DNA from: Escherichia coli
Lineage (GTDB): Bacteria; Pseudomonadota; Gammaproteobacteria; Enterobacterales; Enterobacteriaceae
Length of the DNA stretch: 64,000 nucleotides
NCBI RefSeq assembly: GCF_013315695.1
Contig: NZ_CP054353.1
Reading direction: 5' to 3' (one strand)
Made by a program: the position numbers and the translations under genes. Shown here piece by piece: positions 1,588-64,000 of the stretch; the stretch's first letter is position 1, and every line of letters begins with the position of its first letter. The notes below the pieces were generated by a model, which worked only from the letters and a program-made list of their open reading frames with translations, was not told the origin of the DNA and did not search any database.

Positions 1588-1677
1588 ATGAGCACCGACC
1601 TTAAATTTTCACTGGTAACAACGATTATCGTCCTCGGTTTGATCGTGGCCGTGGGTTTGACTGCCGCGCTGCACTGA
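1588..1677 (+). CDS. ynhF: Small membrane protein YnhF (29 aa)
   Basis: ATG at 1588 preceded by aaaaaggaga SD; translation MSTDLKFSLVTTIIVLGLIVAVGLTAALH (single TM helix) matches remembered YnhF; below the 60-aa ORF-track cutoff so found by reading the sequence. Confidence 0.8.
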   Translation: MSTDLKFSLVTTIIVLGLIVAVGLTAALH

Positions 1678-1842
1678 TTTCCTCTCGAGGGAGCGCGTTC
1701 TCCCTCGCATCTCCTTCCTGTTTGTTAGCAAAATGGCAAAAGTGTTTTCTCTTTTTGTTATTTTCATTTTTTTGTGATTGCTGTCATGCTTTCGCCACTT
1801 TAATGAATATCGCGTAATGACGCGAAGAGGTGGAGATAAGGC

Positions 1843-3012
1843 ATGAAAATTAACTATCCGTTGCTGGCGCTGGCGATTGGCGCGTTTGGTATCGGGACAA
1901 CGGAGTTCTCGCCAATGGGCTTGTTGCCCGTCATTGCGCGCGGTGTGGATGTCTCGATTCCCGCTGCCGGAATGTTAATCAGTGCCTATGCAGTTGGCGT
2001 AATGGTGGGCGCGCCGCTGATGACGCTTCTACTTTCTCATCGTGCCCGCCGCAGTGCGTTGATTTTCCTGATGGCGATTTTCACGCTCGGCAACGTACTT
2101 TCCGCCATCGCGCCGGATTATATGACCCTGATGCTTTCTCGCATTTTGACCAGCCTGAATCACGGAGCATTTTTTGGTTTGGGTTCAGTCGTGGCCGCAA
2201 GCGTGGTGCCAAAACATAAACAGGCCAGCGCAGTTGCCACTATGTTTATGGGGTTAACCCTGGCAAATATCGGTGGCGTGCCGGCGGCGACCTGGTTGGG
2301 TGAAACTATCGGCTGGCGGATGTCATTTCTGGCAACGGCGGGGCTGGGAGTGATTTCAATGGTAAGTCTGTTCTTCTCATTACCTAAAGGTGGTGCAGGG
2401 GCACGACCTGAAGTGAAAAAAGAGCTGGCGGTATTAATGCGTCCGCAGGTGCTGTCTGCATTGCTGACGACGGTACTGGGAGCTGGTGCAATGTTTACCC
2501 TCTACACCTATATCTCTCCGGTACTGCAAAGTATTACCCACGCAACACCGGTGTTCGTCACAGCAATGCTGGTGCTGATTGGTGTCGGATTCTCTATCGG
2601 TAACTATCTCGGCGGCAAACTGGCAGATCGTTCAGTTAACGGCACGTTGAAAGGCTTTTTGTTGCTGCTGATGGTGATTATGCTGGCAATCCCGTTCCTG
2701 GCCCGCAATGAGTTCGGCGCAGCTATTAGCATGGTGGTGTGGGGCGCTGCAACCTTTGCGGTCGTACCGCCGTTACAGATGCGCGTGATGCGTGTCGCCA
2801 GTGAAGCGCCAGGTCTGTCTTCATCAGTCAATATTGGTGCCTTTAATCTTGGAAATGCGCTGGGAGCAGCTGCTGGTGGTGCGGTAATTTCCGCTGGGCT
2901 GGGATACAGCTTTGTGCCGGTGATGGGGGCGATTGTCGCGGGACTGGCATTATTGCTGGTGTTTATGTCAGCCAGAAAACAACCTGAAACAGTTTGCGTT
3001 GCCAACAGCTAA
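1843..3012 (+). CDS. ydhP: MFS transporter YdhP
   Basis: 389-aa ORF, 12-TM-like hydrophobic profile, position between purR and sodB as in K-12. Confidence 0.9.
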   Translation: MKINYPLLALAIGAFGIGTTEFSPMGLLPVIARGVDVSIPAAGMLISAYAVGVMVGAPLMTLLLSHRARRSALIFLMAIFTLGNVLSAIAPDYMTLMLSRILTSLNHGAFFGLGSVVAASVVPKHKQASAVATMFMGLTLANIGGVPAATWLGETIGWRMSFLATAGLGVISMVSLFFSLPKGGAGARPEVKKELAVLMRPQVLSALLTTVLGAGAMFTLYTYISPVLQSITHATPVFVTAMLVLIGVGFSIGNYLGGKLADRSVNGTLKGFLLLLMVIMLAIPFLARNEFGAAISMVVWGAATFAVVPPLQMRVMRVASEAPGLSSSVNIGAFNLGNALGAAAGGAVISAGLGYSFVPVMGAIVAGLALLLVFMSARKQPETVCVANS

Positions 3013-3046
3013 TTAAACAAAAACGCAGAAGGATAACCTTCTGCGT
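3013..3046. terminator. Hairpin terminator between ydhP and sodB (T-run on minus strand)
   Basis: acgcagaagg-ataa-ccttctgcgt stem-loop at 3023..3046 flanked by aaacaaaa (a U-run when read on the minus strand). Confidence 0.5.
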
Positions 3047-3075
3047 TACAGTTGCTGGCAACGTGCGATTTATCT

Positions 3076-3150
3076 TGCCGGATGCGGTGTTAACGACTCA
3101 TCCGTGTTGGCATGGTAAGCGAAGCGCATCAGGCAATGCTGCATTTGCCA
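3076..3150. repeat. REP-like palindromic units
   Basis: gccggatgcggtg... and ...gcgcatcaggca resemble degenerate REP/BIME half-sites in the ydhP-sodB spacer. Confidence 0.3.
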
Positions 3151-3157
3151 TCAGTTA

Positions 3158-3739
3158 TTATGCAGCGAGATTTTTCGCTACAAATTCCCAGTTCACCAGT
3201 GCCCAGAAGTGCTCCAGATAGCCAGGACGTGCATTGCGATAGTCGATGTAATAAGCGTGTTCCCAGACATCAACGGTCAGCAGCGGAGTTGCATCGGTGG
3301 TCAGTGGAGTACCCGCGTTAGAGGTTGAAACGATAGCCAGCTTGCCATCGCTGTTTTTCACCAGCCAGGTCCAGCCAGAACCAAAGTTTTTGATCGCTGC
3401 ATCAGTAAACTGAGCTTTGAAATCGGCAAAGCAGCCAAAAGATGCGGCGATAGCTTCAGCGACTTTTCCAGTCGGTTCGCCACCCGCGTTCGGTGCCAGG
3501 CAGTTCCAGTAGAAAGTATGGTTCCAGACCTGAGCTGCGTTGTTGAATACGCCACCTTCAGAGCTGCGAATAATCTCTTCCAGTGATTTACCTTCAAACG
3601 CGGTACCTTTAATCAGGTTGTTCAGGTTAGTCACATAAGTCTGATGATGCTTGCCGTAGTGATACTCGATGGTTTCCGCAGAAATGTGCGGTGCCAGAGC
3701 ATCTTTAGCATATGGTAGTGCAGGTAATTCGAATGACAT
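3158..3739 (-). CDS. sodB: Fe superoxide dismutase SodB
   Basis: 193-aa [39 protein letters not shown]..., classic Fe/Mn-SOD sequence. Confidence 0.97.
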
Positions 3740-3866: not shown

Positions 3867-4694
3867 TTAGCGAAGTGTTTTTGGGGTCATTACCCGGCGA
3901 GCGCCAACATAGTGGCGCTGCCAGTAGTCTTCACTGAGAGAAGTGATTTGAATTTCCTGACCCGTACGCGGTGACTGAATAAATTTGCCGTTGCCGACAT
4001 ATACGCCGACATGATCGGCTGTACCGCGTCCCTGAGTACGGAAAAAGACCAGGTCGCCGTTTTTCAGTTCACTACGTTCGATTGGCGCTGCATCACGCAG
4101 GTGATACATTTCATTCGCCGTACGCGGAATACGAATTTTCACCAAATCTTTATAAGCGTAATAAACCAGGCCGCTGCAATCAAAACCGGTACGCGGTGAG
4201 CTGCCGCCCCAACGATATGGCTTACCAATTTGCTGCATCAGTTTATTCATTGCCACTTTCGTGGCTTTTTGCACCTTCGCTTTGTGCGCGTCGGCAAGGG
4301 TTCCTGACGCGGCATTTTTGACTTTCACACAATGCGATTTATAGCCCTTACGTTTGGTACACTTTTCGGTAAAGTTGGCTGAGGCCGTTTTATTGACGGC
4401 GTGTTTGCTGCGAGTTTTGGCGTTTTTAGAAGCGGTAATGGAAGATTTTTTAACGGAAGAAGCGGTTTTGCTTTTGATCGTACTTTTACTGGCGGCTTTT
4501 TTCGCTGTTTTCTGGCTGGCTTTCTGGGTCTTTTTGGTGGTTGCCGTGCTTTTCTTTTTATCTGCTTTTTTGGTGATATGAGTAGTAGCAGAACTCTCCC
4601 TGGCTTGCTTTGAAGCATGGGCCATAGGCGTTAAAGGCAGGGTGGTAAAAAGTAAAGCACAGAGCGTGATCGAAATACGGTTTATCCGCGCCAC
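3867..4694 (-). CDS. mepH: NlpC/P60 peptidoglycan DD-endopeptidase MepH (YdhO) with Lys/Ser/Thr-rich linker
   Basis: 275-aa ORF; signal peptide, long low-complexity K/S/T/A linker, C-terminal NlpC/P60 domain (...RWGGSSPRTGFDCSGLVYYAY...HVGVYVGNGKFIQSP...). Confidence 0.9.
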   Translation of the reverse strand: MARINRISITLCALLFTTLPLTPMAHASKQARESSATTHITKKADKKKSTATTKKTQKASQKTAKKAASKSTIKSKTASSVKKSSITASKNAKTRSKHAVNKTASANFTEKCTKRKGYKSHCVKVKNAASGTLADAHKAKVQKATKVAMNKLMQQIGKPYRWGGSSPRTGFDCSGLVYYAYKDLVKIRIPRTANEMYHLRDAAPIERSELKNGDLVFFRTQGRGTADHVGVYVGNGKFIQSPRTGQEIQITSLSEDYWQRHYVGARRVMTPKTLR

Positions 4695-5028
4695 TGAGCG
4701 TCCCTCTGTTAAGGCAGGTCTATCATGCCTGCGTCTGATTTACAAAACTTGATGATTCTAATGCATAGAAGAAGAGAAAGTTAATAGCTTTTATTGTTAA
4801 AAAATACGTTTCGTCGGCGAGCGCAAAAAAATGCAGCAGTGAAAGCTAAAAATGGTTATAAACACGCCAGTTTGCCGTGCATAAGGGAAGAAACGAATAT
4901 TTGAAATGCAACAAATAGAACAAAGGGATAAAATAGCAAAAGCGTGATGAAAATGTTATTTTCCGATGCCGCACTGACCCGCTACAATGTCAGATTACTG
5001 CCGTAAAGAAGTTTGAGGAAGCAAGACA

Positions 5029-5376
5029 ATGAGCACCACTATCGAAAAAATCCAACGCCAGATTGCTGAAAACCCGATCCTGCTGTACATGAAAGGTTCA
5101 CCGAAACTGCCGAGCTGCGGTTTCTCTGCCCAGGCAGTCCAGGCGCTTGCCGCATGTGGCGAACGTTTTGCCTATGTTGATATCCTGCAGAATCCGGACA
5201 TTCGTGCGGAACTGCCGAAATATGCTAACTGGCCGACTTTCCCGCAACTGTGGGTTGACGGCGAGCTGGTCGGCGGTTGTGATATCGTGATCGAAATGTA
5301 TCAGCGTGGCGAACTGCAGCAGCTGATCAAAGAAACTGCCGCTAAATACAAGTCTGAAGAGCCGGACGCGGAATAA
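5029..5376 (+). CDS. grxD: Monothiol glutaredoxin Grx4 (GrxD)
   Basis: 115-aa ORF with CGFS active-site motif (KGSPKLPSCGFSAQAV). Confidence 0.95.
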   Translation: MSTTIEKIQRQIAENPILLYMKGSPKLPSCGFSAQAVQALAACGERFAYVDILQNPDIRAELPKYANWPTFPQLWVDGELVGGCDIVIEMYQRGELQQLIKETAAKYKSEEPDAE

Positions 5377-5390
5377 TCCGTCCTGCAATA

Positions 5391-5418
5391 CTGACGGATG
5401 CGAACGGGCATCCGTCAG
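5391..5418. terminator. Bidirectional hairpin terminator between convergent grxD and lhr
   Basis: ctgacggatgc-gaacgg-gcatccgtcag, 11-bp perfect stem, followed by ttctttatc. Confidence 0.6.
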
Positions 5419-5426
5419 TTCTTTAT

Positions 5427-8400
5427 CTATTCCCAATCCAGCCCTTGTGGCGAACTTGAAAATCCCGCCTCACGCAGCAGCGTAAACATCGGCGTTGGTC
5501 GGACTGGTAGATCATTCACTTCTGTCAGCGTAAAGCGCAGCCGTGGTTCGCGACGCAGTGCGGTAGTCAGCGCATGGAAAACCTCTGGGGCGAGTAATTC
5601 CTCTTTTTCCTGCCAGACCAGCATTTTTTTGCCACCTTGCGCCAGATAAAGTAACAATTTGCCGCCAGAAACGACCACCAGCGCACCCGCCCGACGCGTT
5701 GGAACCAGCGTTGCCGGATGTGCAGGCCAGGGCAGAAGACTTCCCCACACATTAGCCGGATCGTTGGCGGAGAGCGCCACTGGTGTATAGTGGCGCGTTT
5801 GCGCGGTTTGTGTCGCCAGGTCACGCAATCGGTCAATAGTCAGACGTTCAGCGAATTGCGCGCCACCCAGACCTTCTACAAAACGACCCCGCATAATTCG
5901 CCCGGAGTCTTCCATACTTCGACAAAGCGTTTGCATCGATGGAAAACCGCCAGGGATATTTTCGGCTATCACCGCCTGACGACTGATGATGCCGTAGCGG
6001 TCGAGCATATTTTCCGCCAGCGCCAGCATCCTTTCGGTATCGTTTAGTGGCTCCACCTGCAATAACGACCAGCGTCCGGCCAGCTTTGGTGTGTTGTAAG
6101 ATACCCGCGGCGAGACGGGTTGCGCATAGACAGGACGCCCACGACGAGCCCGGTGACTGCGGCGAGTTGAGGTGCGTGCGTTGGAACTGCTGCGGGTGAG
6201 GGCGCGTAACGGTGCCCAAATATCGCTGGTGATGACGCCTTGCCAGACCAGCGCCCATAACGCCTCTTGCAGTGCCGAGGGATCAACCGATTCGCCGATT
6301 TTATCGCGTATCCGTTGGCTGATTTGTTGTGCAAACCAGGCTCCTCCGTCAGCCAGAACAGCGACTATCGCTTGCTGCAGCGCCGAACGATTCGCCTGAT
6401 CCGCTTCGGCGGGAGTGAACGATTCTGCGGCATATTCCTGTAGATGCAGTGCCACCAGGCCGTCATCTTCACCCAGCTTTTTTTGTCCCGACCAGATAAC
6501 CGCTCCGGTTGCCAGTAATTCATCGAGCATTTCTGGCGAATAGTCGCGTACGCGGGCAGGCAGGATCTGGCTTTCCCAGAGTGAGGCGGGTAAACCGACT
6601 CCTGCAAGCTGTTCGATCACCCGCATCACGCCATCCACGCCCTCATAAACGCCTGGCGATGTTGAGGCAAAGAGTGCCGGGCTACCATCGGTGGCGGGTA
6701 ATACGCCCTGACGTTCCAGCAGCAATCGCGCATAGGTCGTGGCCGCAACGGGACGTGTCGCTTCTCTGGCGGCTTGCAGCGAGCGCAAACGCAGACGACG
6801 AAATACTTCATCGCTCACCCAGATGTCTTGTTGCAGATTCATCACCAGACCCTGTTCGCGCAGTTGCTGAAGTTGCTCTTCGACAATGGCAATACCGAGA
6901 CTAAACTCATGAGCCAGTTGTTCAGCCGTGACCAGAGCATGAGCCCGGAGATAGCGCAGAAAGAGGTCGCGAAGCGGGTAACTGACTCGGTGCAAATAAA
7001 TCTCTGGCAGTGACTCTGGTAGTCGTACGCCGAGGGCATCGCGCAGCCTGGCGGCATCATCCATACAGGCAAGACGCTCCTGCCCGCTAATCATCGTCGG
7101 GAAGATTCGTTTTACTGCAAGAAGATTTTCCAGATACGACGCAATCTCTTCACTGCTGCCTGTATGCCGTTGCGCCAGGTCTTCAACGGTCATTGGCCCC
7201 AGTTCGCGCAGCAGGTCGAACAATCCTTCTTCACCTTTCGCTCTTCTGCCAGGAGCCAGTCGTTGCAACTCTTCTTCCACCTGGCGAATGACCTGCGGGT
7301 CGAGTAATTCCCCCGGTTCGACCTGTCCGAGTAGATTGCGCAGTAACTCGCTGTCCAGCGACAGTACGGATGCCCGGCGCTCTGCCAGCGGGGCGTCGCT
7401 CTGGTACATAAATTCCGCGACATAGCCGAACAATAAACTGGCGGCGAAAGGCGAGGGCGTAGTGGTCGTTACATCGGATATTTGAATTTCGCCACCGTTC
7501 AGGCGACGCATCAAACGTTCCAGCGCGGGAAGATCATAAACATCTTGCAGACATTCGCGTAGGGTTTCGAGAATGACCGGAAAATCCGGATATCCCTGAG
7601 CGATTTCCAGCAACTGACTGGCGCGCAGTCGTTGTTGCCAGAGCGGGGTGCGATGGCCCGGCGTGCGGCCCGGCATTAATAATGCCCGCGCGGCGCATTC
7701 GCGAAAACGGGCGGCGAAAAGTGCCGAGCTGCCTACCGCCTCGCGGACAATTTGCAGCAACTTTTCTGGTTCAAACAAAAAAATCGCGGCATCAGGCAAT
7801 TTACCATCGGTGTCAGGAATGCGCGCAACAATGCCGTCATCACTGGCAACCACAGACGCGTCAGCGCCCCATAGTGCATGTATTCGCCCGGCAATCGCCA
7901 GCGCCCAGGGTTCATGCACCCGTCTTCCATAGGGAGAGTGCAAAATAATACGCCAGTCACCAATTTCATCACGGCACCGTTCGAGGACAAGATGACGACT
8001 ACCTGGAACGATACCCGTCGCGTTGCGCTGCTCGTCAATCAACCCCTGAATATTGGCGATCGTATTTTCTTCTGCCAACCACGGGGGAATAGTCCCGGAA
8101 AAGAACGCGCCATCCGCCAGTAAATGGAGAAAATCGCCGATCATCTCGCCTAATTCTGCCGGACGTCCGTTACCTTCACCACGCCAGAAGGGAAGGCGGG
8201 CAGAACGACCTGGAGCAGGAGTCACAATCACCTGATCGCGGGTGATTTGCTGGATCCGCCATGAGGTTGCGCCAAGAGTGATAATATCGTTCACCCGTGA
8301 CTCATATACCATCTCCTCATCCAGTTCACCCACCCGCCGCGAACCGGCCTGTTCTTCACCTTCGGGTAATAACACGCTATACATGCCACGATCCGGAATG

Positions 8401-29987: not shown

Positions 29988-32684
<2,697 letters not shown>

Positions 32685-42962: not shown

Positions 42963-45838
<2,876 letters not shown>

Positions 45839-45853
45839 GGTAATGACTCCAAC

Positions 45854-46357
45854 TTATTGATAGTGTTTTATGTTCAGATAATGCCCGATGACTTTGTCAT
45901 GCAGCTCCACCGATTTTGAGAACGACAGCGACTTCCGTCCCAGCCGTGCCAGGTGCTGCCTCAGATTCAGGTTATGCCGCTCAATTCGCTGCGTATATCG
46001 CTTGCTGATTACGTGCAGCTTTCCCTTCAGGCGGGATTCATACAGCGGCCAGCCATCCGTCATCCATATCACCACGTCAAAGGGTGACAGCAGGCTCATA
46101 AGACGCCCCAGCGTCGCCATAGTGCGTTCACCGAATACGTGCGCAACAACCGTCTTCCGGAGCCTGTCATACGCGTAAAACAGCCAGCGCTGGCGCGATT
46201 TAGCCCCGACATAGCCCCACTGTTCGTCCATTTCCGCGCAGACGATGACGTCACTGCCCGGCTGTATGCGCGAGGTTACCGACTGCGGCCTGAGTTTTTT
46301 AAGTGACGTAAAATCGTGTTGAGGCCAACGCCCATAATGCGGGCTGTTGCCCGGCAT
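45854..46357 (-). CDS. insB: IS1 transposase InsB
   Basis: 167-aa [61 protein letters not shown]... Confidence 0.95.
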
Positions 46358-46551
46358 CCAACGCCATTCATGGCCATATCAATGATTTTCTGGTGCGTAC
46401 CGGGTTGAGAAGCGGTGTAAGTGAACTGCAGTTGCCATGTTTTACGGCAGTGAGAGCAGAGATAGCGCTGATGTCCGGCGGTGCTTTTGCCGTTACGCAC
46501 CACCCCGTCAGTAGCTGAACAGGAGGGACAGCTGATAGAAACAGAAGCCAC
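46276..46551 (-). CDS. insA: IS1 InsA
   Basis: 91-aa [46 protein letters not shown]... Confidence 0.95.
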
Positions 46552-46606
46552 TGGAGCACCTCAAAAACACCATCATACACTAAATCAGTAAGTTGGCAGC
46601 ATCACC

Positions 46607-47310
46607 TTCGTGATGAAGGGGTGTATAACAGCCAGACGGGAAAATACGATAAACATCGCGCACGTTCTTTTTTAGCCGCCAGTTGGCATGATGATACCAG
46701 TCGCTATTCTCTGGGGGCATCGGTACAGAAAGATGTTTCCAATCAGTTACAAAGTATTCTCGAGAAAAGCATACCGCTCGACCCGAATTATACGTTGAAA
46801 GGGGAGTTGCTCGGCTTTTACGCGCAACTTGAAGGTTTAAGTCGTAATACCAGCCAGCCCAATGAAACGGCGTTAGTTAGTGGACAATTGACCTGGAATG
46901 CGCCGTGGGGAAGCGTATTTGGCAGTGGTGGTTATTTGCGCCATGCAATGAATGGTGCCGTGGTGGATACCGACATTGGCTATCCCTTTTCATTAAGTCT
47001 TGATCGTAACCGTGAAGGAATGCAGTCCTGGCAATTGGGCGTCAACTATCGTTTAACTCCGCAATTTACGCTGACATTTGCACCGATTGTGACCCGCGGC
47101 TATGAATCCAGTAAACGAGATGTGCGGATTGAAGGCGCGGGTATCTTAGGGGGTATGAACTATCGGGTCAGCGAAGGGCCGTTACAAGGGATGAATTTCT
47201 TTCTTGCTGCCGATAAAGGGCGGGAAAAGCGCGATGGCAGTGCGCTGGGCGATCGCCTGAATTACTGGGATGTGAAAATGAGTATTCAGTATGACTTTAT
47301 GCTGAAGTAA
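46607..47310 (+). pseudogene. uidC: Outer-membrane glucuronide porin uidC, 5'-truncated (C-terminal ~230 codons remain)
   Basis: 229-aa ORF starts immediately after IS1; beta-strand-rich sequence ending ...YDFMLK; position between uidB and ydgA. Confidence 0.7.
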
Positions 47311-52004: not shown

Positions 52005-53430
52005 TAATGCCGATCAGTTAAGGATCAGTTGACCGATCCAGTGGCTGTGTAAGAATCCGGAAACGCTCACTTGTTTCCGGATTTTTTTATGCACATTGGA
52101 CAGGCTCTTGATCTGGTATCCCGTTACGATTCTCTGCGTAACCCACTGACTTCTCTGGGGGATTACCTCGACCCCGAACTCATCTCTCGTTGCCTTGCCG
52201 AATCAGGTACTGTAACGCTACGCAAGCGCCGTCTTCCCCTCGAAATGATGGTCTGGTGTATTGTTGGCATGGCGCTTGAGCGTAAAGAACCTCTTCACCA
52301 GATTGTGAATCGCCTGGACATCATGCTGCCGGGCAATCGCCCCTTCGTTGCCCCCAGTGCCGTTATTCAGGCCCGCCAGCGCCTGGGAAGTGAGGCTGTC
52401 CGCCGCGTGTTCACGAAAACAGCGCAGCTCTGGCATAACGCCACGCCGCATCCGCACTGGTGCGGCCTGACCCTGCTGGCCATCGATGGTGTGTTCTGGC
52501 GCACACCGGATACACCAGAGAACGATGCAGCCTTCCCCCGCCAGACACATGCCGGGAACCCGGCGCTCTACCCGCAGGTCAAAATGGTCTGCCAGATGGA
52601 ACTGACCAGCCATCTGCTGACGGCTGCAGCCTTCGGCACGATGAAGAACAGCGAAAATGAGCTTGCTGAGCAACTTATAGAACAAACCGGCGATAACACT
52701 CTGACGTTAATGGATAAAGGTTATTACTCACTGGGACTGTTAAATGCCTGGAGCCTGGCGGGAGAACACCGCCACTGGATGATACCTCTCAGAAAGGGAG
52801 CGCAATATGAAGAGATCAGAAAACTGGGTAAAGGCGATCATCTGGTGAAGCTGAAAACCAGCCCGCAGGCACGAAAAAAGTGGCCGGGACTGGGAAATGA
52901 AGTGACAGCCCGCCTGCTGACCGTGACGCGCAAAGGAAAAGTCTGCCATCTGCTGACGTCGATGACGGACGCCATGCGCTTCCCCGGAGGAGAAATGGCG
53001 GATCTGTACAGTCATCGCTGGGAAATCGAACTGGGATACAGGGAGATAAAACAGACGATGCAACTGAGCAGGCTGACGCTGAGAAGTAAAAAACCGGAGC
53101 TTGTGGAGCAAGAGCTGTGGGGTGTCTTACTGGCTTATAATCTGGTGAGATATCAGATGATTAAAATGGCGGAACATCTGAAAGGTTACTGGCCGAATCA
53201 ACTGAGTTTCTCAGAATCATGCGGAATGGTGATGAGAATGCTGATGACATTGCAGGGCGCTTCACCGGGACGTATACCGGAGCTGATGCGCGATCTTGCA
53301 AGTATGGGACAACTTGTGAAATTACCGACAAGAAGGGAAAGGGCCTTCCCGAGAGTGGTAAAGGAGAGGCCCTGGAAATACCCCACAGCCCCGAAAAAGA
53401 GCCAGTCAGTTGCTTAACTGACTGGCATTA
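52005..53430 (+). mobile_element. IS4 copy 1 (1426 bp), no target-site duplication
   Basis: 18-bp imperfect terminal inverted repeats TAATGCCGATCAGTTAAGG / CCTTAACTGACTGGCATTA; flanks ccgcccttcgggg vs gtccccagggaga differ. Confidence 0.93.
52089..53417 (+). CDS. insG: IS4 transposase (DDE, IS4 family)
   Basis: [66 protein letters not shown]...; identical to the ORF in copy 2. Confidence 0.93.
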
Positions 53431-56149: not shown

Positions 56150-56240
56150 TAGACTGGCCCCCTGAATCTCCAGACAACCAGTATCACTTATTTAAGTGAT
56201 AGTCTTAATACTAGTTTTTAGACTAGTCATTGGAGAGCAG

Positions 56241-56606
56241 ATGATTGATGTCTTAGGACCGGAGAAACGCAGACGGCGTACCACACAGGAAAAGATCGCA
56301 ATTGTTCAGCAGAGCTTTGAACCGGGGATGACGGTCTCCCTCGTTGCCCGGCAACATGGTGTAGCAGCCAGCCAGTTATTTCTCTGGCGTAAGCAATACC
56401 AGGAAGGAAGTCTTACTGCTGTCGCCGCCGGAGAACAGGTTGTTCCTGCCTCTGAACTTGCTGCCGCCATGAAGCAGATTAAAGAACTCCAGCGCCTGCT
56501 CGGCAAGAAAACGATGGAAAATGAACTCCTCAAAGAAGCCGTTGAATATGGACGGGCAAAAAAGTGGATAGCGCACGCGCCCTTATTGCCCGGGGATGGG
56601 GAGTAA
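56241..56606 (+). CDS. insC: IS2 InsC (OrfA)
   Basis: [56 protein letters not shown]... Confidence 0.93.
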
Positions 56607-57469
56607 GCTTAGTCAGCCGTTGTCTCCGGGTGTCGCGTGCGCAGTTGCACGTCATTCTCAGACGAACCGATGACTGGATGGATGGCCGCCGCAGTCGTCA
56701 CACTGATGATACGGATGTGCTTCTCCGTATACACCATGTTATCGGAGAGCTGCCCACGTATGGTTATCGTCGGGTATGGGCGCTGCTTCGCAGACAGGCA
56801 GAACTTGATGGTATGCCTGCGATCAATGCCAAACGTGTTTACCGGATCATGCGCCAGAATGCGCTGTTGCTTGAGCGAAAACCTGCTGTACCGCCATCGA
56901 AACGGGCACATACAGGCAGAGTGGCCGTGAAAGAAAGCAATCAGCGATGGTGCTCTGACGGGTTCGAGTTCTGCTGTGATAACGGAGAGAGACTGCGTGT
57001 CACGTTCGCGCTGGACTGCAGTGATCGTGAGGCACTGCACTGGGCGGTCACTACCGGCGGCTTCAACAGTGAAACAGTACAGGACGTCATGCTGGGAGCG
57101 GTGGAACGCCGCTTCGGCAACGATCTTCCGTCGTCTCCAGTGGAGTGGCTGACGGATAATGGTTCATGCTACCGGGCTAATGAAACACGCCAGTTCGCCC
57201 GGATGTTGGGACTTGAACCGAAGAACACGGCGGTGCGGAGTCCGGAGAGTAACGGAATAGCAGAGAGCTTCGTGAAAACGATAAAGCGTGACTACATCAG
57301 TATCATGCCCAAACCAGACGGGTTAACGGCAGCAAAGAACCTTGCAGAGGCGTTCGAGCATTATAACGAATGGCATCCGCATAGTGCGCTGGGTTATCGC
57401 TCGCCACGGGAATATCTGCGGCAGCGGGCTTGTAATGGGTTAAGTGATAACAGATGTCTGGAAATATAG
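56564..57469 (+). CDS. insD: IS2 transposase InsD (OrfB, expressed by -1 frameshift from insC)
   Basis: 301-aa ORF overlapping the insC 3' end in the -1 frame; DDE integrase-type sequence. Confidence 0.93.
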
Positions 57470-57480
57470 GGGCAAATCCA

Positions 57481-58125
57481 AAATGCCGACTGACTGTCTG
57501 TGCGCATCCAATGACTAAAGGGAACATTAAGCGTAAAAGCGAGTAAATGATCCCGATCGTTTTGCCATATATTATTGGAATAGCTGTAATTCAGCGAAGT
57601 CGTAATATCACTAAACGGCACATTTAATCCAAATGATATTTGCTGGTCGCTGCGTGACGTGTTCCAGTAACTTTGGCGACTGGCACTGAAAAATGTCGTA
57701 CCGTAATTTCCAAGCTGCTGAGAGATGCTTATTTGTTCCTGACCACGCTTACTGTAGAACAGATTAAAATAATCAATAAATTGTGTCTGCTCATTGCTGT
57801 CTCCGGTAGGAGGCTTGACGGTGTAACCACTCATTCGACTGTAGGCACTGTCGGATAAGTTATAAAAACCTTGCGTAGAATAGCGATATCCTGCGACCTG
57901 GATATTGGTTCCCGTCTGGTAGAAGGATTTGCTGTAGACGGATTTAATCGATTGCCCGCTGTGACGGGTGCCATCTGCAAGTGTCGTATTGGCCTGCGTG
58001 ATATCGAAAGAAAAGGCACCAAAAAGTCCTAAATCTTTACCAATACCAAGGTTGAAGGCCTGATAATCTTCTGCAATTTGCATTCCGCCATAAGGCGTCC
58101 AGTTTCCTTCCAGTCCATGCATCAA
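57481..58125 (-). pseudogene. ydeT: Fimbrial usher internal fragment (ydeT-like); N-terminal part of the usher absent
   Basis: ORF 57394..58125 is usher-like until it runs into IS2; together with 55350..56149 about 480 codons, roughly half of a full usher; upstream is AT-rich non-coding. Confidence 0.65.
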
Positions 58126-58506
58126 GTCATTCTGTTATTGCTTATAAAACAAGAATCATTCTTGATGGGATATTGCCCTGAGAATATAGTTTCCAGGGTT
58201 ATTACATTTCACGAAGAACGATAATATCTTTAAATTACAAGGACACCTAATCACAACAAGTTTATTGCAGCACTTGTTGTAGAGAGTATTTGCAAAGACA
58301 TTTTATGTCGCTAAATAACATGACGATTTCATTATGCATGTTATTTATAAACCGTGACTAAACAGAATATTATTGCGAACAAGGGAAGTGTCAGGAAAGG
58401 TCAAGAGCGACCAATGGTTTATATGGCTATAAATCATTAGCTATAGTTAATGTTTGCCTGGTGTAACTAACACGGAATTGCTCTAAACAGATAAGTGCAG
58501 GGTTTA

Positions 58507-58761
58507 TTAAAGCTGACCGACAGACTTTCTTAACCTGGTAATATCTCTCTTAGGTGACTCTCCAAACATCCGCGAATATTCCCGACTGAAATGGGATAAG
58601 CTTTCGTAACCGACAACATAGGCTGCAGTGGTGACATCGTAATGTTCATTCAGCATCAGTCGCCTGGCTTCATTGAGGCGTAGCCATTTCTGATACCGGA
58701 GTGGACTCATTCCCGCAAGCTGTATGAAGTGTTGATGGAAAGAGGGGGTGTTCATTTGCAC
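58507..58761 (-). pseudogene. yneL: AraC-family regulator C-terminal HTH fragment (yneL-like)
   Basis: 84-aa ORF with AraC-type second HTH (...YVVGYESLSHFSREYSRMFGESPKR...); no intact N-terminal domain upstream. Confidence 0.6.
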
Positions 58762-59150
58762 GCGGTTTGCCAGCCTGACTCTTCAACGCAGGGAAGATGC
58801 GGCAAACGGCAAACCTGCATACCAGCCAGCCTATATCCGGTATGCACAGGCCAATCATGAAAGAGGAGAGGCTTTATGTTCTGGAACCCTGAAGTAATAA
58901 CGACGACCGGAAAATCGCTTCGCATCACTCAAATCACATTTAACATAATATACATTATGCGCACCAACATAAACCAAGGAAGAATCCAGTCGTTGGCGGT
59001 CATGATTGTCGTGCTCATTAATAACGACCAAACCCCATATTAACTGCCGCATCAAAAACGCCATGATCCGCGCGATGCCTGGGCCTCCATCTGATTCATG
59101 AAAGTGACAACGGTCTGGCATAACGGCTGGCTAACCACTCCGGTGCATAC

Positions 59151-61119
59151 TTAAAGGTGTGCGCGCCGTTGGCTAACTTCGTTAAGTTCGCCGGTCACGT
59201 TTTTTAGCGTTAACAGACCGTCACTAGCAATATTTCCTCTGCCTAACCCCTGCGTATTGTCGAGGCTGACTTCCGCATTTGGGCTAATGCTGGTTAACGC
59301 ATTGTAGCGTGCATTAAGCCCCTCGATAGCCAGTGTTCCCCCTGTAACATTCAGGTTTCCGCCACCTGTCAGTTCGCCCTGACTGATCCCACCTTTATTC
59401 ACCGTCAGCGAACCTTCTTTGAACAAAACAGTCGAACCCATCAGCCCGGTGAATGTCTCCACCGTCTGGGCCGATCCATTAAGATCGACGATGGCCGCGT
59501 TGCTGATGTTCAGTTCCCGGGTGTTGCCCAGCGCGCCATCCGCATCGGTACGTAATGTCCCCATCTGAACATAGGTTGCCCCCTGATAGTCGTTCTGACC
59601 GTTGGAAAGCGAAACCTGTCGCACCGTATTGATTGCCAGATCCCCTTCACCACCGATTTTTGCCGACATATCGGCCGTTGCGCCATAGGCTCCGCCATGT
59701 TCGGCTAACGTCAGCTTTTGCCCTCCATGGATGTTCAGCGCTTTCAGCCCATAGTTAACGTACAAACCATCACCTGGTGCGGTCGTGAGGCGGAATCCAT
59801 AATCACCCTCGGCGACCACCGTTCCGTTTTGCGCAATGTGTAACGTTTTGTCCGCTTCCACCTCGTCGCCCTGTAAATCACGTAACGTTAATGAGCCACC
59901 CGACCCAATAACCGTTTGCGCCTTCACCAGTTGAACGCCGACATGGCTATCATCGTGTTCCAGCAAATTGAGCGTCGTCAGAGGGTTATTCGCCATGGGA
60001 TCATTCCACGGTTTAGGCACGTCGATAAGCACGTCGCCCGTCCCGTTTACCTGATAGTTACGGCCTTTCCAGGTGTAGTCACCCGCGCCGACAACCAGCG
60101 TATCGACGCTGATATATCCCTCTGCAAGCGTCGCAGCAGGAATATCCGTATCGAAAATGAGCGTACCGCCATTCATGGCCAGTCCACCAATGGATTGCTC
60201 TCCCACTTTTACCGATGTGGTATTTTCACTGTCAGACTGCAACATCGCGTGAGTAAGCGCAGCGGTGTTGTCGCGTTCCAGAGTGAAGGTACTGTCTTTC
60301 AGTTGGGCAACACCGGCGAATTCAGTCCCTGTTGCATGGGTAAAGCCAAATATCTTGTCGGAGGATGACAGCTGCACTCGCATCAAGCCATCGCCTTTGA
60401 GCGCATTGGTCAGCGTGTAATCTCCTGCGCTGTTCGTTGATGCGAGAATGTCGAGCGTACCGGGGCTTGCAATGGTGACTTCACTCGAACCCATGCCTGT
60501 TACCCCATCTGCCGTATGTGACGCAATAGTCAGGAGGCCGTCATTGACCAGCGTTTTACCGCTATAAGTATTCCCTGCATTGAACACCGTATGGCCTGCA
60601 TCATGCATCACTTTTCCGTCTTTATCGTCACCCGTAATCAGCATATCGACCTGGTAGCCGGCATCACTGTTATTGGTATGATTAAAGACAAAAACGCCTT
60701 CGCCAAGACCAAACTCCACTTTCGTCGCATTGGTAATAAACCCGGCATCTGCCGCCACCTCACCGTGAGCAGCACCAATGTTTAGCGTTCCTACAGCAGG
60801 CTCAAAAACACCTAAGTAAACTTCTCCACCTTCGACATTCAGCGTGCCGTTATTCGTCAGGGTTAACGTACCTGTGCCAGTCGTCCCTACGTTCATATTG
60901 AATGTTTCAAGAAGAGAGTTCTGCCCATCCACCCGCACGTCGCCCTTACTTTTGTCATTCAGAGCTATCTGTGTATCACGCGCTTTAACTATACCTCCGG
61001 TGGTAATATTCAGTTCACCCGTACCTAATACACCGACCTGTAGCAATTGGGCGTTAGTAGATGACGTTTTTAAATTCCAGAGACTATCCGTTGAAATATT
61101 AACTATCCCCTTACCGGAG
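59151..61119 (-). pseudogene. AIDA-I-like autotransporter adhesin passenger domain, C-proximal part (no beta-barrel translocator follows)
   Basis: ORF 59151..61046 (631 aa), Gly/Thr/Asn-rich beta-helix-type repeats (TGTGTLTLTNNGTLNVEGG...); ends ...EVSQRRAHL without a barrel domain. Confidence 0.7.
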
Positions 61120-62545
61120 TAATGCCGATCAGTTAAGGATCAGTTGACCGATCCAGTGGCTGTGTAAGAATCCGGAAACGCTCACTTGTTTCCGGATTTT
61201 TTTATGCACATTGGACAGGCTCTTGATCTGGTATCCCGTTACGATTCTCTGCGTAACCCACTGACTTCTCTGGGGGATTACCTCGACCCCGAACTCATCT
61301 CTCGTTGCCTTGCCGAATCAGGTACTGTAACGCTACGCAAGCGCCGTCTTCCCCTCGAAATGATGGTCTGGTGTATTGTTGGCATGGCGCTTGAGCGTAA
61401 AGAACCTCTTCACCAGATTGTGAATCGCCTGGACATCATGCTGCCGGGCAATCGCCCCTTCGTTGCCCCCAGTGCCGTTATTCAGGCCCGCCAGCGCCTG
61501 GGAAGTGAGGCTGTCCGCCGCGTGTTCACGAAAACAGCGCAGCTCTGGCATAACGCCACGCCGCATCCGCACTGGTGCGGCCTGACCCTGCTGGCCATCG
61601 ATGGTGTGTTCTGGCGCACACCGGATACACCAGAGAACGATGCAGCCTTCCCCCGCCAGACACATGCCGGGAACCCGGCGCTCTACCCGCAGGTCAAAAT
61701 GGTCTGCCAGATGGAACTGACCAGCCATCTGCTGACGGCTGCAGCCTTCGGCACGATGAAGAACAGCGAAAATGAGCTTGCTGAGCAACTTATAGAACAA
61801 ACCGGCGATAACACTCTGACGTTAATGGATAAAGGTTATTACTCACTGGGACTGTTAAATGCCTGGAGCCTGGCGGGAGAACACCGCCACTGGATGATAC
61901 CTCTCAGAAAGGGAGCGCAATATGAAGAGATCAGAAAACTGGGTAAAGGCGATCATCTGGTGAAGCTGAAAACCAGCCCGCAGGCACGAAAAAAGTGGCC
62001 GGGACTGGGAAATGAAGTGACAGCCCGCCTGCTGACCGTGACGCGCAAAGGAAAAGTCTGCCATCTGCTGACGTCGATGACGGACGCCATGCGCTTCCCC
62101 GGAGGAGAAATGGCGGATCTGTACAGTCATCGCTGGGAAATCGAACTGGGATACAGGGAGATAAAACAGACGATGCAACTGAGCAGGCTGACGCTGAGAA
62201 GTAAAAAACCGGAGCTTGTGGAGCAAGAGCTGTGGGGTGTCTTACTGGCTTATAATCTGGTGAGATATCAGATGATTAAAATGGCGGAACATCTGAAAGG
62301 TTACTGGCCGAATCAACTGAGTTTCTCAGAATCATGCGGAATGGTGATGAGAATGCTGATGACATTGCAGGGCGCTTCACCGGGACGTATACCGGAGCTG
62401 ATGCGCGATCTTGCAAGTATGGGACAACTTGTGAAATTACCGACAAGAAGGGAAAGGGCCTTCCCGAGAGTGGTAAAGGAGAGGCCCTGGAAATACCCCA
62501 CAGCCCCGAAAAAGAGCCAGTCAGTTGCTTAACTGACTGGCATTA
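61120..62545 (+). mobile_element. IS4 copy 2 (1426 bp) with perfect 13-bp target-site duplication
   Basis: Same terminal repeats as copy 1; ccccttaccggag at 61107..61119 and 62546..62558. Confidence 0.95.
61204..62532 (+). CDS. insG: IS4 transposase
   Basis: Translation identical to copy 1. Confidence 0.93.
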
Positions 62546-64000
62546 CCCCTTACCGGAGGCATTTCCTCCGATAAATCCATAGCCCGTTGAATTAAGGGTG
62601 GCACCATTACTGACATTTACGATGCCGCTACCAAAATTACCGACATTGATACCTACAGTATCGAACGATGATGTCGCATCCATCAGGTTCAGTGTGCCGA
62701 TACCGCTTGCTTTATCGCCCAAAAAAGTAATATTTTGCGATACGAACTTACCGCCATCGCTGATATTGAGGTTTCCGACGCCCGCTACACCAATGGTGGT
62801 ATAGACATTCTTATTGACCTCCCATATCCCCCCCGTGGTGATGCTAACCTTCCCGACGCCGGTTTCTCCATAACCGAGTGAACTTCCTCCGTTGCTGACA
62901 ACAAGCCCCTCATTACTGATATTCATTTCGCCGTGGCCGTCATAACCAAGATTAGTTCCGAGATTAGTGATAACGGAGTTCTTATCCTTAACAGTAATGT
63001 TGCCTGTGCCTGTTTCTTTCATCCCCGCAGTGATAATTCCCGAATCTACTTTGCCTTCACTAGAGACATTAAGTTCACCGTCGCCAGCATCACCGATATA
63101 GATATAGCGGAAAGCTTCGCCCGTTCCGAGGAAATTCCAATGCCCTTTATCGGTCACGTTGACGACACCGTGGGAACCGTCCTGAACGCCCACCAATGAA
63201 TATTCTTTGTTATTAATCAGTCCATTATTGGAAATATTGACTTTGCCATTACCGAAATATCCATTATAGAGTCTGCGTACCGTGATGACAGAGTCTTGAT
63301 CCTGCACATTCAGGGTTCCGATACCGGTGGCATTGCCTCCGATAATCGTATTTTCAGCCGTAATTAGCCCACCCTCGCGAATAGTCGCTTCCCCAGTTCC
63401 TTGATTACCAATTTGAAATTCAATTGAGGAATCGTTATTTTTTATTAGCCACTCACCGCCCTTTTCAACGACAACCTTACCATTACTGTTCGCTTGATAT
63501 CCTACAGTGGCGACTATTGAACTCGTGACGTAACCCTTATCCGTAATATTTAATGAGCCCGTACCGTAACTCCCTATTTCGAATAATTCGGTCGTCAGAA
63601 CCGAGTCCTCTCCCTCAACATTAACCGTCCCGACGCCTCCTGTCGAAGAACCTATCCTTAAATATCCTCCGTCAACGTGACCCTTCTGTTTAATATTCAG
63701 CGTCCCCGTTCCGGATTGACCCACATTTAAAGGCCTTGCATTATTTCCGCTATCATACAATCGCCAGGTGCCACCCAAAACATTAACGGTGCCCTCCGAG
63801 TCCTCATTACCACCAATGACGCTGGTAGTAATAGTGGTTAAGGAGGCATTACCGCCAGCCAAAATATTAAGCACTCCAGTGCCATACCACCCAACCAGGT
63901 AGGCATCGTAAGCAACATCAGTATTAATATTGGTAATCTGACCATTATCAACTTCCAGACTCGCACCAGACGCTGAACCGCTTAGTGCCAGCAAAACACC
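62546..64000 (-). pseudogene. AIDA-I-like autotransporter passenger domain, N-proximal part (continues beyond window end)
   Basis: ORF 62543..63994 (483 aa) with repetitive G/N/T-rich motifs (GTGTLNIKQKGHVDGG..., GTGEATIREGG...); stop lies 3 nt inside IS4 copy 2. Confidence 0.7.

Follow-up and report, generated by a model that had tools for sequence, protein, structure and literature searches.

The window, by which we mean the whole stretch of Escherichia coli DNA analysed here (64 kb; 64,000 nucleotides), ends in the remains of a large autotransporter gene on the minus strand, which is interrupted by a complete IS4 element that we call copy 2 (Table 1). The neighbours of this gene are those known for the ECSE_1600 autotransporter family (NF011422): lsrK flanks it at one end, and hipA, dif and the ydeQRS fimbrial genes lie beyond its other end. 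The canonical 28-mer by which dif was recognised is established knowledge, and cumulative GC skew reaches its maximum between 57 and 59 kb.

Two complete genomes, AF3 and MSB1_4I, are closely related to the window genome; no complete genome matches the window along its full length. Window positions 2701-52601 and 56150-64000 match MSB1_4I at 99.99% identity; in that genome the two matching parts lie 90 kb apart in opposite orientation, and the left side of the IS2 copy is bordered by prophage sequence. AF3 matches the right part of the window, lacks the hybrid junction formed at the other IS4 element of the window (copy 1), and has a usher/chaperone region that is 822 bp longer.

Table 1 Features of the IS4-interrupted autotransporter locus and its surroundings (window coordinates)
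Feature	Position	Strand	Evidence or remark
IS4 copy 1, sequence and orientation as copy 2, no target duplication	52005..53430	+	Flank comparison with AF3
IS2, 1,331 bp, in fimbrial usher gene	56150..57480	+	5-bp duplication AAATG
dif, chromosome dimer resolution site	58938..58965	-	Exact match to canonical 28-mer
Deletion junction, autotransporter codon 1175 fused to hipA scrap	59151..59192	-	TCGCC microhomology
3' fragment, autotransporter passenger region (gene nt 1590-3524)	59185..61119	-	Without promoter, without start codon
Left copy of 13-bp target-site duplication, CCCCTTACCGGAG	61107..61119		On minus strand, part of codons 530-534 (...ASGKG)
IS4 copy 2, complete, 1,426 bp	61120..62545	+	100% identity to annotated IS4
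Left terminal inverted repeat, TAATGCCGATCAGTTAAG	61120..61137	+	Complementarity to right end 16/18
Hairpin and U-run in IS4 left end, just upstream of transposase ATG	61166..61201	+	RNA fold -24.4 kcal/mol, z = -4.7
IS4 transposase ORF, 442 aa from ATG	61204..62532	+	Pfam, NCBIfam, YREK motif
Inward-facing terminator-like hairpin in IS4 right end, 11-bp stem then UCUUUUU	62516..62541	-	z = -5.0
Right terminal inverted repeat, CTTAACTGACTGGCATTA	62528..62545	+	16/18 match with left end
Right copy of 13-bp target-site duplication, CCCCTTACCGGAG	62546..62558		Perfect match, abuts IS4
5' fragment, ECSE_1600-family autotransporter gene (gene nt 148-1602)	62546..64000	-	GF131 alignment

Structure of IS4 copy 2

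Copy 2 is an intact IS4, a DDE transposase element belonging to the IS4 subgroup of the IS4 family. It shows 0 mismatches against copy 1 and, over its full 1,426 bp, is 100% identical to elements that bear the annotation 'IS4-like element IS4 family transposase' in a large number of complete E. coli genomes. Elements of the subgroup measure 1400-1650 bp, have ends of the form -AATR--------WTW and generate direct repeats of 10-13 bp (PMC2266710, Table 1 for size). The length of copy 2 lies within this range (PMC2266710). Its terminal inverted repeats begin with TAATG, and the left end, TAATGCCGATCAGTTA, bears the subgroup signature: AATG occupies positions 2-5 and TTA positions 14-16.

The transposase is of the DDE type and is encoded by one single ORF, for which RefSeq gives a 448-aa product starting at a TTG at 61186. 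Profile searches revealed the Pfam domains Nterm_IS4 (PF13006, 3e-33) and DDE_Tnp_1 (PF01609, 9e-32) and a score of 304 bits against NCBIfam NF033592 (cutoff 115), whilst the YREK motif, of pattern Y(2)R(3)E(6)K, is found at residue 307. Since neither the ORF nor either end is damaged, and genomes of the AF3/MSB1_4I lineage carry IS4 at 18-19 places where the median is 1, it is plausible that copy 2 would be active in transposition. The IS4 of E. coli is the insG element of K-12. Compared with the E. coli IS4 recorded in ISfinder, copy 2 has the same length, ends, ORF, domains and duplication range, the sole difference being its location.

Each end of the element also contains a predicted RNA hairpin; a simple terminator scan caught the right-end hairpin alone, and the left-end hairpin was seen by explicit folding. 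The latter probably stops read-through from outside the element or occludes translation initiation. The right-end hairpin is situated directly 3' of the stop codon that closes the autotransporter 5' fragment, this stop being a TAA supplied by the final 3 bases of CTTAACTGACTGGCATTA read on the minus strand.

Insertion site within the autotransporter gene

The preliminary description had placed a perfect 13-bp direct repeat, CCCCTTACCGGAG, on both sides of copy 2, and we recovered it exactly at 61107-61119 and 62546-62558. Its length falls inside the 10-13 bp published for the IS4 subgroup, and duplications at ten other distinct IS4 sites measured 11, 12 or 13 bp. These ten sites and the copy 2 target share a core that is C-rich at its start and G-rich at its end, between A/T-rich arms. 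To a target consensus of AAA-N20-TTT for IS4 the 11 sites examined show a loose fit only.

We compared the flanks with GF131, a reference that carries an intact 1,805-aa ECSE_1600-family autotransporter at a locus beside lsrK. Window positions 64000-62546 correspond to nt 148-1602 of the GF131 gene and positions 61119-59185 to nt 1590-3524, so that the flanks are contiguous and overlap by 13 nt; the overlap (gene nt 1590-1602, codons 530-534) is the duplication itself, which indicates a simple insertion. Strain 55989 displays the same overlap of the copy 2 flanks (L006, 14344-14356). The excised junction of 477 nt, which includes ...ATTAACTATCCCCTTACCGGAGGCATTTCC..., occupies a single uninterrupted place, the empty site, in at least 3,977 of the 5,426 complete E. 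coli genomes that made up the searched collection. The occupied site was found in 2 of the 5,426, AF3 and MSB1_4I, making the insertion a clean lineage-specific marker. Taken together, these comparisons make it practically certain that copy 2 is a simple IS4 insertion into the autotransporter gene with a 13-bp duplication, as had first been proposed, and nothing that we saw contradicts this.

We also considered that the 13-bp repeat could be a coincidence or an assembly artefact, such as an IS collapsed or misplaced in a repetitive passenger gene, given that autotransporter passenger genes contain internal repeats and that IS copies are well known to cause assembly errors. This is scarcely credible. 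The 13-mer CCCCTTACCGGAG has exactly 2 occurrences in the window, also when one mismatch is allowed, against 0.03 matches expected from shuffles, and the chance of a 13/13 flank match at fixed element ends is about 4^-13 (1.5e-8). Moreover, the junctions and the duplication are identical in AF3 and MSB1_4I, two complete assemblies that are independent of each other and originate from the UK and Australia, and in thousands of genomes with the empty site the two flanks join perfectly.

Domain searches of the GF131 protein revealed an ESPR signal peptide (PF13018, residues 1-47), an autochaperone (PF18883, 1332-1438) and a beta-barrel (PF03797, 1525-1783). The insertion site, at residues 530-534, lies between the signal peptide and the autochaperone plus barrel (1332-1783) and hence in the passenger domain, in agreement with the preliminary description. 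The start codon of the gene is 147 nt past the window end, leaving codons 1-49 outside; when the N-terminus was rebuilt from the MSB1_4I extension, its first 80 residues, ESPR included, equalled those of GF131. It had further been predicted that removing the element and one repeat copy would restore the frame, and in silico excision of 61120-62558 did give a continuous minus-strand ORF, aligned to GF131 residues 1-1175 without gaps at 99.6% identity. Against NF011422 (cutoff 2335), the rebuilt product of 1,185 aa reaches 2634.5 bits and covers model positions 1-1177 of 1806. As found, the 5' fragment encodes a 534-aa ESPR-plus-passenger product, and in MSB1_4I RefSeq calls a 534-aa 'ESPR-type extended signal peptide-containing protein' intact.

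We propose that the ECSE_1600-family gene, on the minus strand beside lsrK, was hit at codons 530-534 by transposition of an intact IS4, in one insertion event in an ancestor that the window genome, AF3 and MSB1_4I recently had in common. By analogy with the family, the target would have been cut with a 13-bp stagger and the gaps repaired to yield the 13-bp duplication. The insertion splits the gene into a 5' piece, encoding a 534-aa signal-peptide-plus-passenger fragment that stops at the IS4-derived TAA with the terminator-like hairpin next, and a 3' piece that has neither promoter nor start codon. We observed the identity of the element, its duplication, the restored frame, the distribution of empty and occupied sites and the second lesion; we infer how the transposition proceeded chemically, what becomes of the truncated product and what the hairpins do.

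A second lesion at the 3' end of the gene

Compared with the intact family as represented by GF131, the window gene is interrupted at codon 534, where IS4 splits it, and is also without residues 1176-1805. Homology ends at gene nt 3524 (codon 1175), and both the beta-barrel PF03797 and the autochaperone PF18883 are absent from the window copy. The junction at this point, which includes ...GGCTAACTTCGTTAAGTTCGCCGGTCACG..., adds 10 foreign codons followed by a stop at 59151-59153; the deletion takes out the autochaperone, the beta-barrel, hipB and most of hipA, and ends ~190 bp from dif. This microhomology deletion, from codon 1175 into hipA, inactivates the gene a second time. Beyond what the preliminary description had covered, this independent deletion makes the restored frame end early, 10 foreign residues after codon 1175. 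Excision of IS4 would repair the insertion site but not the gene, and the window copy is a pseudogene remnant that cannot work as an autotransporter.

As a single piece, the deletion junction (window 58990-59390, 401 nt) was present in AF3 and MSB1_4I only among the 5,426 genomes, and this collection contained no genome with the deletion and without IS4, or with IS4 and without the deletion. A broader 1.4-kb query of the deletion had returned 151 genomes at ≥80% coverage, which the 401-nt query showed to be matches put together from separate stretches of DNA and not the same junction.

The order of the two lesions could also be such that IS4 landed in a gene already dead from the codon-1175 deletion, in which case the insertion would have been selectively neutral. 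We consider the chances of this to be evenly balanced. The autochaperone and barrel are lost through the deletion, the surroundings show heavy decay (IS2 in the usher gene, fimbrial deletions, hipA scraps), and the locus is often a pseudogene in other strains, with truncated copies in SMS-3-5 and CE10; however, both lesions are confined to the same 2 genomes, so the opposite order is equally compatible. The question bears on history alone and not on the nature of copy 2.

For annotation, the 534-aa 'intact' RefSeq protein of MSB1_4I is the 5' stump of the IS4-disrupted autotransporter, and the 3' stump of that autotransporter gene is the pseudogene named 'autotransporter barrel domain-containing lipoprotein'. 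In a literature search, yneO/ydeK turned up in passing mentions only. Beyond annotation the importance of copy 2 is small; the insertion is ordinary IS biology.

IS4 copies and rearrangement of the terminus

Copies 1 and 2 are identical, have the same orientation and are 9.1 kb apart, an arrangement that could point to a composite transposon in which both (52005-53430 and 61120-62545) moved as a unit with the 7.7 kb between them. Such an insertion would duplicate its target at the outer ends, and the outer flanks differ (...CCGCCCTTCGGGG left of copy 1 against CCCCTTACCGGAG... right of copy 2), which refutes this reading. Copy 2 has a duplication of its own, each flank of copy 1 derives from a different AF3 insertion, both of these insertions having their own duplication, and the DNA between the copies is not foreign: it is the autotransporter's native neighbourhood, collinear with strain 55989. 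On this flank analysis we rule the composite transposon out, its probability being negligible.

Whilst copy 2 is a simple insertion, copy 1 had been read as the mark of a rearrangement, and our comparison bears this out. No target duplication surrounds it, its left flank is the fumA terminator site of AF3 and its right flank the ydeQ site of AF3, revealing a recombinant of the fumA/fumC-site and ydeQ-site IS4 copies. Both parental insertions in AF3 have their own duplications and are mutually inverted in orientation; the predicted reciprocal junction is present in MSB1_4I, where both reciprocal hybrid junctions are found. This pattern fits IS-mediated inversion through homologous recombination of two IS copies in inverted orientation, which applies to copy 1 and not to copy 2, and from these junctions copy 1 is deduced to mark a ~129-kb inversion carrying dif. 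Copy 2 lies inside the inverted segment, yet both its native flanks are kept, and its intact duplication indicates that it, unlike copy 1, has not recombined with other copies. AF3 is not inverted, and MSB1_4I is inverted with a further IS2-associated rearrangement.

We lean slightly towards a wider reading of the locus, in which the insertion would be one footprint of an IS4 burst and IS copies would serially reshuffle the terminus. The ~129 kb, with dif and tus in it, would have been inverted when the fumA-site copy recombined with the ydeQ-site copy, which would have moved dif by ~117 kb, and the window genome would be intermediate between AF3 and MSB1_4I. TerB and TerC presumably lie within the inverted segment, as placed by the K-12 map. 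Under the inversion reading, skew polarity remains convergent on dif after the ~117 kb displacement. In this IS4-rich lineage the intact copy 2 helps to reconstruct the order of rearrangements around dif and, if the wider reading is true, the three near-identical strains would constitute a natural series on the tolerable displacement of dif and the fork trap.

Structure and insertion of IS4 copy 2

We removed 61120-62558 in silico, and translation across the junction yielded one continuous minus-strand frame. At least 3,977 of the 5,426 complete genomes contain a single unbroken match to a 477-nt query laid across this junction; the matched places are annotated 'ECSE_1600 family autotransporter', a locus flanked by lsrK on one side and by hipBA and the ydeQRS fimbrial genes on the other. 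The two parts of the gene are contiguous in strain GF131, whose intact gene spans 5,418 bp (1,805 aa), and their alignments overlap exactly by the 13 duplicated bases, nt 1590-1602 (codons 530-534); the same 13-nt overlap was found against strain 55989. With its N-terminus taken from the near-identical sequence of MSB1_4I, the reconstructed product comprises 1,185 aa, scores above the curated cutoff of NF011422 and, over residues 1-1175, shares 99.6% identity with GF131 without gaps. Given the positions of the GF131 domains (see table), residue 530 lies well within the passenger domain, between the signal peptide and the autochaperone and barrel. The preliminary description had proposed a simple insertion into the passenger domain, with a 13-bp duplication and a frame restorable by excision; this analysis bears it out throughout, including the coordinates and perfect identity of both repeat copies, and excision regained a continuous passenger ORF rather than a broken one.

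The 1,426-bp element is bounded directly by the two copies of CCCCTTACCGGAG, and its ends, TAATGCCGATCAGTTAAG / CTTAACTGACTGGCATTA, are inverted repeats matching at 16 of 18 positions. A pattern search of the 64 kb, allowing one mismatch, revealed only these two copies of the 13-mer, where shuffles lead one to expect 0.03; the chance of a 13/13 flank match, once the element ends are fixed, is ~4^-13. At 100% identity, copy 2 matches elements that many complete E. coli genomes list as 'IS4-like element IS4 family transposase', and IS4 matches occur in 2,686 of the 5,426 genomes (median one place per genome, maximum 32). Its transposase carries the Pfam domains Nterm_IS4 and DDE_Tnp_1, scores 304 bits against NCBIfam NF033592 (cutoff 115), and displays the Y(2)R(3)E(6)K motif at residue 307. 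The IS4 subgroup is defined by a size of 1400-1650 bp, ends of the form -AATR--------WTW, YREK and direct repeats of 10-13 bp (PMC2266710), and copy 2 agrees in every one of these. Copy 2 is a known element, IS4, inserted by a known mechanism, and the event is an ordinary one. The hairpins at both ends are strong and point inward, and could shield the transposase gene from transcription arising outside.

Ten further, distinct IS4 insertions in public genomes (L003, L007 and L008-L015) gave duplications of 11, 12 or 13 bp. At these ten sites, target cores tend to be C-rich at the start (CCCC, CTCC, CCGCCC) and G-rich at the end (GGAG, GGGG, GCAG), whilst the arms are A/T-rich and a T-run often follows within a few bases of the core. 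The copy 2 site, TTAACTAT[CCCCTTACCGGAG]GCATTTCC (core bracketed), agrees with this pattern, and the 11 sites together suggest that IS4 prefers a structured or bipartite target. One of the 11 is itself the fumA terminator hairpin.

Coordinates of features in the window and in comparison sequences
Feature	Sequence	Coordinates	Strand	Remarks
13-bp duplication	window	61107-61119 and 62546-62558
IS4 copy 2	window	61120-62545	+
IS4 transposase ORF	window	ATG 61204 to 62532	+	sole ORF; 442 aa; RefSeq start TTG 61186
Left-end hairpin, then U-run	window	61166-61201	+	just upstream of ATG; z = -4.7
Right-end hairpin, then U-run	window	62541-62516	-	z = -5.0
5' part of gene	window	64000-62546	-	GF131 gene nt 148-1602
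3' part of gene	window	61119-59185	-	GF131 gene nt 1590-3524
hipA scraps, remainder of hipA	window	59047-59099 and 59100-59192		versus strain 55989
ESPR signal peptide	GF131 product	1-47
Autochaperone	GF131 product	1332-1438
Beta-barrel	GF131 product	1525-1783
IS4 of copy 1	window	52005-53430
IS4 compared with copy 1	L003 (ydeQ site)	4364-5789
IS4 compared with copy 1	L007	4706-6131
Reciprocal IS4 hybrid junctions	MSB1_4I	2541319-2544344 and 2673371-2676396
IS4 site 1	AF3			terminator hairpin between fumA (annotated fumB) and fumC; 13-bp duplication CCGCCCTTCGGGG
IS4 site 2	AF3			in ydeQ; 12-bp duplication GTCCCCAGGGAG

Fate of the autotransporter gene and its surroundings

IS4 (plus strand) and the gene (minus strand) face opposite ways. 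Reading of the 5' fragment continues through the duplication and ends at a TAA formed by the last three IS4 bases (62543-62545), giving a product of 534 aa with zero foreign residues, which RefSeq annotates in MSB1_4I as an intact 'ESPR-type extended signal peptide-containing protein'. The right-end hairpin lies directly downstream of this stop and would plausibly terminate the transcript; judging from type Va secretion, the 534-aa stump, lacking a barrel, could reach the periplasm at most. The 3' fragment has neither promoter nor start codon.

A second lesion affects the 3' end. Homology to the intact gene stops at 59185 (gene nt 3524), followed by 10 foreign codons in frame and a stop at 59151-59153. 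Compared to strain 55989, ~2.4 kb is missing: 1.9 kb from the 3' end of the autotransporter gene, hipB and the first part of hipA, with TCGCC microhomology at the junction. Since this deletion at codon 1175 is also present, IS4 excision repairs the site and not the gene. The locus is also truncated in SMS-3-5 and CE10; the gene is often a pseudogene, and the site hit within it is a typical target.

The occupied site, with identical duplication, was found in AF3 (blood culture, UK) and MSB1_4I (rectal swab, Australia), the same and only two of the 5,426 genomes that carry the deletion junction as a single piece. The presence of the occupied site in two independent assemblies excludes an assembly artefact, and places the event in an ancestor common to both. 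IS4 occupies 18-19 places in these two genomes, compared to the median of one. Over 2701-52601 and 56150-64000 the window and MSB1_4I agree at 99.99% identity, but are arranged differently.

Over 58121-59192 the locus is extensively decayed relative to strain 55989: it has lost the 5' end of the usher gene, the chaperone, fimA and hipB, with the remnant of an HTH pseudogene at ~58507-58761. A 1,331-bp IS2 (56150-57480) interrupts the fimbrial usher gene as a simple insertion, with duplication AAATG. In MSB1_4I a further rearrangement has occurred at this IS2, the DNA to its left being prophage sequence instead, and the window genome appears intermediate between AF3 and MSB1_4I. Elsewhere, at ~42963-47310 (annotation of the near-identical MSB1_4I mapped onto the window), uidA is frameshifted and an IS1 (~45854-46551) parts truncated uidB and uidC; the glucuronide operon appears inactivated. 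Diverged tandem repeats (~90% identity, offsets in multiples of 96 bp) occupy 30037-30458, in the region corresponding to rsxC.

IS4 copy 1 and inversion around dif

Copy 1 shares the sequence and orientation of copy 2 but lacks a duplication; it is preceded by ...CCGCCCTTCGGGG on the left and followed by GTCCCCAGGGAG... on the right. In AF3 these flanks belong to two separate IS4 insertions, each with its own duplication, in inverted orientation and separated by ~129 kb. If these two recombined, a pair of hybrid junctions would be expected. Of the pair, the fumA-IS4-ydeQ5' junction is present in both the window and MSB1_4I, whilst the reciprocal ydeP-ydeQ3'-IS4-fumC junction, built in silico, was found in MSB1_4I only, at 100% identity and coverage. 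As both reciprocal hybrids exist, copy 1 marks an inversion of ~129 kb, and the contrast drawn in the preliminary description stands: copy 1 records a rearrangement, copy 2 a simple insertion, here inside the inverted segment. We rejected a composite transposon of copies 1 and 2, as the pair is bounded by unlike outer flanks and encloses DNA native to this neighbourhood.

The inverted segment includes tus as well as dif. An exact match to the canonical 28-mer of E. coli dif lies on the minus strand at 58938-58965, some 190 bp away from where the autotransporter remnant is cut short, and the 57-59 kb bin that contains it is also where cumulative GC skew reaches its peak. The inversion would move dif by ~117 kb with skew polarity still convergent on it, since dif lies within the inverted segment. 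What mild interest there is lies in the rearrangement around dif that IS4 has driven at the level of the lineage.
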